64,000 nucleotides of DNA from a virus: the IMG/VR virus record IMGVR_UViG_3300031949_000002; one strand, 5' to 3'. Each line of letters starts with the position of its first letter. Within the stretch, counting starts at the first letter, position 1. The notes below the pieces were generated by a model. The model did not search any database, was not told where the DNA came from, and saw only the letters and a program-made list of their open reading frames with translations. Positions 189-655 of this stretch are shown here, piece after piece. Made by a program: the position numbers and the translations under genes.

Positions 189-211
189 CCGGCGCGGCGG
201 ATAGCCGCGAC
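189..211 (+). repeat. Solitary CRISPR-repeat-like hairpin
   Basis: CCGG-CGCGGC-GGATA-GCCGCG-AC; same layout as array repeats; 34 nt before ATG at 246. Confidence 0.6.
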
Positions 212-245
212 GCCTGACTAGTAGAGGCAAACGAGGAAAACGCGA

Positions 246-593
246 ATGAGACCACGGCTGGCGGTAATCGTATGCGGCTGGTGTGGTTGCGATCCTACAG
301 AACCGTGCTTACTCTGTCAGGGTAGAATCAATGAGCTTGGCGAGTATGCCGACTGGCTGGTTGACGCGACCAAAGCCAGAATCTCTGAACTCTACGACGC
401 TTTCCTGACTATTCAACGGTCGAGACGTTCTGATCTCGCTCCAGAGGAACGCTTCCTAACCGAGGTCGTGCCGATCAACGGACCGAACGAGCCGGTTTGC
501 GGTACCTGCGGCCGACGTCTTGCATGGAAGCCGGTCGGGCTCCCGCTGCCTCCCGGAATCGTTCCTTGCCCAGAGTGCAAAAAAGGGAACTAG
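246..593 (+). CDS. Small Cys-rich hypothetical protein (putative Zn-binding)
   Basis: 115 aa, several CxxC pairs, GAGG upstream. Confidence 0.55.
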   Translation: MRPRLAVIVCGWCGCDPTEPCLLCQGRINELGEYADWLVDATKARISELYDAFLTIQRSRRSDLAPEERFLTEVVPINGPNEPVCGTCGRRLAWKPVGLPLPPGIVPCPECKKGN

Positions 594-598
594 CGACG

Positions 599-623
599 CC
601 CGCGCAGAGGCTAGGTCTGCGAC
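599..623 (+). repeat. Solitary CRISPR-repeat-like hairpin in effector 5' UTR
   Basis: CCCG-CGCAGA-GGCTAGG-TCTGCG-AC; 19/25 identical to last array repeat with a compensatory pair; 32 nt before ATG at 656. Confidence 0.8.
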
Positions 624-655
624 AGCGTGATAATGCCGTAAGGAAAGGAGTGGAA

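Follow-up and report, generated by a model that had tools for sequence, protein, structure and literature searches.

CRISPR-repeat-like hairpins in the leaders of a phage cas12m gene and its small neighbour: candidate sites of processing in cis

CRISPR-repeat-like hairpins stand alone in the 5´ leaders of two consecutive genes of a giant phage, cas12m and the small gene P0002 in front of it. Judged by its sequence, the hairpin before cas12m is certainly derived from the CRISPR repeats of the locus, and the hairpin before P0002 probably is as well. In the reading that we favour, to which we give about an even chance, Cas12m would process both leaders in cis and would thereby couple mRNA maturation to the effector level and the crRNA load.

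The window analysed here is a 64-kb stretch of a 341-kb contig, the source of which is a giant phage. The sole sequencing run that contains DNA of the window is a soil metagenome (a DNA run), and no match to a close relative of the phage was found in the phage collection or in IMG/VR. The features of the module are listed in Table 1. No Rfam family was matched in positions 1-4700, and the terminator scan made no call at the inverted repeat that closes the module.

Table 1. Features of the cas12m module in the 64-kb window.
Feature	Positions	Strand	Details
End of upstream ORF	to 114	+	
Unit 1, probably repeat-derived	186-211	+	Flank GAACCGG, stem CGCGGC/GCCGCG, 5-nt loop GGATA, then AC
Leader of the small gene, 34 nt	212-245	+	First 17 nt (212-228) in the place of a guide; GAGG RBS ~9 nt before the ATG
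P0002, small Cys-rich ORF, 115 aa	246-593	+	Four CxxC motifs; in the 'spacer' position between both units
Repeat unit 2	596-623	+	Flank ACGCCCG, stem CGCAGA/TCTGCG, loop GGCTAGG, then AC; pseudoknot GCC:GGC kept
Leader of cas12m, 32 nt	624-655	+	Nt 1-17 (624-640) in the place of a guide; RBS GGAG at 647-650, beyond nt 18
cas12m (P0001), 591 aa	656-2431	+	
Intergenic leader between cas12m and the array, 156 nt	2432-2587	+	TTGACA hexamer at 2501-2506; no promoter called in the consensus scan
CRISPR array, 25 strongly diverged units	2588-4178	+	Period ~71 nt, but 51-66 nt in the 3´-terminal units
17 nt after the last array repeat	4179-4195	+	Identical to the 17 nt after the in-ORF unit of the L093 cas12m
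15-bp inverted repeat closing the module, then minus-strand genes	4242-4295	unassigned	Repeat-pair search

The type V-M locus and its solitary hairpins

The effector P0001 had been taken for a Cas12m-type protein in the original prediction, and homology searches bear this out. P0001 matches PDB 23vw ('CRISPR-associated DNA-binding protein Cas12m') with an E-value of 1.2e-76 and Cas12m2 (8hio) with an E-value of 7.7e-19, and it contains the Cas12f1-like TNB domain of Pfam (PF07282). The best of its 247 homologues is 57% identical. Across the clade, D304, E492 and D577 hardly vary, and the Cys pairs are conserved as well. An effector of this kind next to an array whose repeats carry a 3´ stem and a pseudoknot identifies the locus, at the level of sequence, as a type V-M (Cas12m) CRISPR-Cas system. 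The RuvC triad of P0001 is the canonical D-E-D (D304, E492 and D577), compared with HDD in the characterised MmCas12m2 and NDD in PmCas12m; judged from this triad, P0001 may be able to cut DNA.

The DNA of relatives was fetched for 92 loci and then for five more that hold the closest homologues (97 in total). The family repeat consensus, based on one array repeat per locus (38 distinct), runs from a 7-nt flank (ACGCCYG) into a 6-bp stem, whose two strands enclose a loop of about 9 nt (GGCTTnGTn), and ends with AC. In the stem and the 3-bp pseudoknot, which pairs GCC in the flank with GGC in the loop, 97.1% of the cells are paired, compared with 71% in shuffles and 31-50% when the partners are slid, and eight of the nine pairs show changes on both sides. 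The excess of pairing over the slid controls indicates that the family scaffold is under structural selection. The 25 units of the window have a mean identity of 61% and form the same two helices, with 92.4% of the cells paired versus 36-45% in the slid controls. This scaffold of stem and pseudoknot agrees with those of Cas12m2 and PmCas12m.

Array periods vary in the window and among relatives. The last six units of the window (3866-4178) have short periods of 51-66 nt and short 5´ flanks, and the arrays of L007, L044 and L086 combine periods of ~72 nt with periods of ~50 nt, implying spacers of ~20-27 nt. A very long array of more than 40 diverged units with irregular periods lies downstream of a Cas12m homologue at L006:6824-10181. 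A search for self-targets of the array spacers in the window gave nothing above chance, and matches between spacers and protospacers among the fetched loci were too few for a PAM to be derived.

Both hairpins have the layout of the array repeats and lie where the original prediction had placed them. Positions 189-211 read CCGG-CGCGGC-GGATA-GCCGCG-AC, followed by 34 nt and the ATG at 246; positions 599-623 read CCCG-CGCAGA-GGCTAGG-TCTGCG-AC, followed by 32 nt and the ATG at 656. The second hairpin is identical to the last array repeat (4154-4178) at 19 of 25 positions, with a compensatory change from a T-A to a C-G pair, exactly as had been claimed. Both hairpins (186-211 and 596-623) are present in the minimum-energy folds, and no U-tract follows either of them.

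The loose form of the motif (a 6-bp stem, a loop of 4-14 nt and then AC) occurs at about 0.9 per kb per strand and is therefore not significant by itself. Two covariance models were used for a more specific comparison: R1, built from the array repeats of the relatives alone, and R2, built from the window's own array. With R1, 596-623 scores 29.0 bits (E 3.9e-4) and ranks seventh in the window, above most of the phage's own array units; it is the only strong match outside the array in the 64 kb, the next best reaching 13.6 bits. The same unit scores 25.3 bits with R2 and 26.3 in our own scanner, in which it is the fifth best in the window. The family pseudoknot is retained, as GCC in the flank pairs with GGC in the loop. 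By this sequence evidence, 596-623 is certainly repeat-derived. In addition, the first 8 nt of the cas12m leader (AGCGTGAT) are the first 8 nt of the spacer that follows array unit 3169-3191. The earlier expectation that the motif marks start codons more than other positions gains no support from the loose motif, which is common, but stands in the stricter sense that R1 singles out 596-623 and that relatives are enriched in such units.

The case for 186-211 is of a different kind. Its scores are at background level (11.3 bits with an E-value of 2.8 for R1; 14.6 bits with an E-value of 0.29 for R2), its loop is unusually short, and four other sites outside the array outscore it with R2. The opening five bases of its stem and of its loop match array unit 4037-4059 at 10 of 10 positions; alone among 110 background hairpins, it has 0 mismatches in these ten positions, where the bulk have 4-6. 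It differs from that unit in stem position 6, which is flipped from G-C to C-G, and in a 4-nt deletion in the loop. This paralogy makes a repeat origin of 186-211 likely. By significant similarity to the repeats of the locus, 596-623 is a solitary repeat unit, and 186-211 qualifies only through its paralogy to 4037-4059. The original claim that both hairpins are repeat-derived is thus firm for the second (29 bits with R1) and probable for the first, given its unique exact match.

Other model matches (50047-50076 on the minus strand, 27351 and 62435) were rejected as further examples, being either not at spacer length before a start codon or inside ORFs. The site at 50047-50076(-) scores 22.4 bits with R2 (E 0.004); it is intergenic, 128 nt upstream of ORF 49918-49577(-), and has no clear hairpin by eye.

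P0002, which matches no Pfam or PHROG family, has homologues in phage contigs with 63-78% identity over the N-terminal ~70 aa. The loci of these homologues are tight clusters with gaps of at most 21 nt, without an adjacent cas12m and without units. The C-terminus of P0002 and the 80-nt gap with the hairpin upstream of the gene are specific to the lineage of the window, and only the ~15 nt before the ATG resemble the regions upstream of the homologues. The pattern fits an arrival of the unit together with the cas12m module, in a comparison of one genome with three. Compared with L140:6001-6255, L141:1050-1322 and L143:1504-1776, P0002 has a different C-terminus with two extra CxxC pairs, and may have arisen when an adjacent zinc-ribbon gene was fused to it where the cas12m module joins. 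Its GC3 is 0.59, versus 0.76-0.82 in neighbouring genes, and codon bias gives no support.

Units upstream of cas12m in related loci

The zone from -100 to -5 of the cas12m ATG was surveyed in 68 distinct loci with enough upstream DNA, using our own scanner, which reproduces the ranking of the models; the expectation was taken from the rate on the opposite strand. Units with a score of at least 20 were found in 8 of the 68 loci (0.07 expected), and units with a score of at least 14 in 14 (0.38 expected). About 12-20% of the relatives, roughly one in six, therefore have an upstream unit. Conservation of the hairpins beside homologous effectors, on which the original prediction depended, is accordingly borne out by the enrichment and limited by its spread: the units are absent in 80-88% of the loci, including those of the four nearest homologues, and scattered among the rest.

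The distance from unit to ATG is 42, 82, 44, 35, 37, 11, 32 and 36 nt for units with a score of at least 20 and 19, 76, 15, 31, 39 and 67 nt for the weaker ones, and is thus mostly 32-44 nt. In nearly all cases the RBS starts after nt 18 past the unit. The upstream units carry the stem and pseudoknot variants of their own locus. Where a stem pair differs from that of the nearest array unit of the same locus, it is still paired in 6 of 6 cases, a small count that is biased by a scanner demanding a near-intact stem.

The units occur in several settings. In L012 and L014, the upstream unit is the final repeat of a same-strand array of 9 to 11 units directly upstream, and L012 has the usual downstream array in addition. 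With an array ending in front of cas12m, the gene in these relatives occupies a spacer position, and read-through from the upstream array into cas12m is hard to avoid. Irregular, decayed arrays lie upstream in L044 and L036, and single units are found in the window, L002, L007, L037 and L047. A neighbouring gene can also be preceded by a unit, as the original prediction had proposed for the window: L012 contains, in this order, a full repeat, 41 nt with an RBS, a 225-aa ORF, an array and cas12m, and this arrangement of repeat, 41 nt and ORF is the layout of window positions 186-655. The genes that follow solitary units in relatives gave no Pfam families. Dispersed units, single or paired and scattered among genes, were observed in L002 (ends at 4592, 4666, 4737, 5964, 8221, 8564, 11011, 11207 and 11332) and in L042 (4476, 4588, 5358, 7724, 9039 and 9235), all on the strand of cas12m.

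The four closest homologues (L093-L096) are without an upstream unit, and L093 has a promoter-like TTGACA-17-TAACAT in its place. On a quick maximum-likelihood tree of Cas12m, the 14 rows with the trait need at least 12 changes, six of which are forced by well-supported branches, and the scatter of the trait is no better than that of shuffled labels. The trait is therefore labile and not an obligate part of the system. Its scatter could come from unstable arrays.

Units inside the gene form a separate observation. A unit of consensus quality lies within the cas12m ORF at L093:4482-4511 and L018:2011-2040, at residue ~354 and at the same codon position; both loci are without an upstream unit, and a compensatory stem pair is found between the two in-ORF units. 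In-ORF units as a general feature of the family were considered and rejected: they are strong only in L093 and L018 and degenerate elsewhere, including 1733-1758 in the window.

The 17 nt after the last array repeat of the window (4179-4195) are identical at 17 of 17 positions to L093:4512-4528, which follows the in-ORF unit of L093, and their length is that of a mature Cas12m guide. A public search with this 17-mer (CCCCACTTGTCCCAGAT) gave 8 viral and 34 genome matches, which is the chance level for 596 Gb; none of these adjoins a repeat, and several lie on the strand opposite to unrelated genes that encode IWDKWG. Taken as a guide, 4179-4195 has its best partial match at 2497-2513(-), with three mismatches and a CTT flank, overlapping the TTGACA hexamer. 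The 11-mer TTGACAAGTAG has a single copy in the window and one more among the 97 loci, the latter at the promoter-like site of L093 (L093:3367-3377). Repression of the array leader by the terminal spacer through 2497-2513, that is, self-repression of the array, is only a weak lead: in PmCas12m, even one mismatch in the 12 nt next to the PAM is not tolerated.

Proposed processing in cis and the rival readings

Published work agrees with the earlier statement that Cas12m binds and cuts repeats without a tracrRNA. [quoted passage not shown] PmCas12m cuts after repeat nt 2-3 and at guide nt 17-18, which yields a crRNA of ~50 nt with a 17-nt guide; the position of the guide cut used below is taken from this one distant Cas12m.

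In the proposed processing, the two hairpins would be copies of the phage's own Cas12m repeat scaffold within the 5´ leaders of P0002 and cas12m. Both genes would stand in the 'spacer' positions of a split CRISPR array and would probably be co-transcribed with the repeat units. Cas12m would bind the stem and pseudoknot of the leader units as it does in array repeats, cutting a few bases into the repeat and again ~17-18 nt past it, predicted near 598 and 640-641. Each of the two mRNAs would be freed with a short leader that retains its RBS, which for cas12m means ~15 nt with GGAG (647-650), and one Cas12m would stay locked on a crRNA-like RNA with 17 nt derived from the leader. Effector synthesis would thereby be tied to effector activity and to competition from array crRNA, and the feedback could have either sign, repression or stabilisation. 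Simple occlusion of the RBS is less likely than the original prediction had implied: one characterised Cas12m cuts at guide nt 17, upstream of the RBS.

The candidate Cas12m site lies 32 nt before the cas12m ATG and near the RBS, and its inclusion in the mRNA and its binding are predicted from this arrangement. No sigma-70-like promoter was called by the consensus scan on the + strand of positions 1-700, and the 32-nt leader of cas12m is too short to hold a promoter. We also count in favour of processing in cis that, in phage contigs where homologues of P0002 lack a neighbouring cas12m, units are absent and hardly any gap separates the genes. A broader form of the proposal, which we advance tentatively and with some doubt, is that genes including cas12m are 'giant spacers' in the arrays of a mostly phage-borne Cas12m clade; Cas12m would excise their mRNAs, expression would depend on its activity and on the crRNA load, and the in-ORF units of L093 and L018 would be a second route to self-control.

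The main rival to processing in cis holds that the units are vestigial, the last remains of an array that once lay upstream and either decayed or was broken up as genes recombined into it; they may still be cut, without selection for regulation. The series from full upstream arrays (L012 and L014) through decayed ones (L044 and L036) to single units is what decay would leave behind, the trait is scattered and often absent, the array of the window is itself heavily diverged, and the C-terminus of P0002 and its surroundings are mosaic. Simple decay accounts less well for a unit at 596-623 that is better preserved than most array units, for distances to the ATG that cluster tightly at 32-44 nt with the RBS just past nt 18, and for differences from the locus' own array units that keep the pairing; the in-ORF units of L093 and L018 further suggest that units were placed repeatedly in cas12m mRNA. 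On balance we regard a purely vestigial origin as rather unlikely. A guide function resembling CreR appears quite improbable. Here the unit and the 17 nt after it would guide Cas12m to DNA that is partly complementary and flanked by a PAM, for example at the cas or array promoter, and would repress transcription. The precedent is close, as CreR upstream of cas12a represses the cas12a promoter (bioRxiv 10.1101/2023.03.10.532045), solitary units stand upstream of cas12a in 34-56% of type V-A loci (bioRxiv 10.1101/2023.03.03.530964), and Cas12m is, in published work, a DNA-binding silencer. However, neither leader guide is matched elsewhere with up to four mismatches in the 64-kb window of the 341-kb contig; the 11 loci with upstream units yield five partial matches against 3.0 expected, none at a promoter; and the sole perfect match is the unit's own DNA, with a GAC flank unlike the known Cas12m PAMs (TTN, YTN, YTTS and TTV). 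For the original suggestion that the untranslated regions serve as guides, the search of the window and of 10 relatives thus yielded no target in trans. CreR also has its own promoter and a closing degenerate repeat, and here no + strand promoter was found in 1-700 and the ATG of the gene occupies the place of the second repeat.

Two further readings carry very little weight. Racrs are solitary repeat units in viral genomes (PMC10651486), and the source here is a phage, so units expressed as decoys that soak up the Cas12m of the host or of a rival deserve mention; the units agree with the array of the phage itself and immediately precede the gene of its own effector, and scans found no separate promoter or terminator, which makes a decoy role very improbable. 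It is hardly credible that the hairpins arose by chance or are unrelated structures, for instance stems that end or stabilise the transcripts of the genes upstream. The abundance of the loose motif and the background-level model scores of 186-211 are what chance would give, but chance is already refuted for 596-623 by its E-value with an independent model, 186-211 is a uniquely exact match to an array unit, both hairpins lack a U-tract, and relatives are strongly enriched in upstream units.

Relation to known systems and consequences

TnpB processes its own mRNA into omega RNA, and its guide RNA overlaps the 3´ end of the gene. Engineered systems include single-transcript designs of Cas12a with its array and Csy4 hairpin insulators. 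As in the processing proposed here, expression then depends on processing: the effector guided by RNA, or the RNase specific for a repeat, cleaves the transcript from which it or its neighbours are made. The Cas12a and Csy4 cases are engineered and the overlap in TnpB is at the 3´ end, whereas the arrangement in the window is natural and located at the 5´ leader.

Solitary repeat units next to cas12a are patchy within clades and have no conserved targeting pattern (Shmakov et al., bioRxiv 10.1101/2023.03.03.530964). Type V-A loci and the window have in common that one sequence resembling a repeat stands apart from the array, next to and upstream of the type V effector gene, and that its distribution is patchy. 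The window differs in that it belongs to type V-M, which that survey did not describe, and in that its unit is of high quality and not near the detection limit. In the window and its relatives the distance to the ATG is fixed at 32-44 nt, with the leader and its RBS in the place of the spacer; in some Cas12m relatives the unit is continuous with a full upstream array, and a neighbouring gene has a unit as well. CreR resembles the window in its degenerate repeat upstream of the effector gene and is thought to tie Cas expression to the crRNA load (bioRxiv 10.1101/2023.03.10.532045), but it acts on DNA, at a promoter site that is flanked by a PAM and partly complementary to it, whereas the action proposed here is in cis and on mRNA. 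Racrs are likewise solitary repeat hairpins encoded by viruses (PMC10651486); they mimic host repeats and disable host Cas complexes, whereas the units of the window correspond to the array of the phage that carries them and stand in front of its cas12m. Type V-A loci already provide examples of lone repeats next to a type V effector gene, and what is new is a type V-M variant with a candidate mechanism at the RNA level.

The comparative pattern makes processing in cis testable with few constructs. Should Cas12m indeed mature or throttle its mRNA through the leader repeat, a class 2 effector would naturally regulate itself at the RNA level, unlike in the DNA-level loops of Cas9 (tracr-L) and of Cas12a and type I systems (CreR), and this would explain the frequent solitary repeats beside type V effector genes. 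For Cas12m as a compact programmable repressor, it would mean that native leaders carry a built-in dosage control. In phage CRISPR loci, it would mean that there are genes inside arrays that array finders miss.
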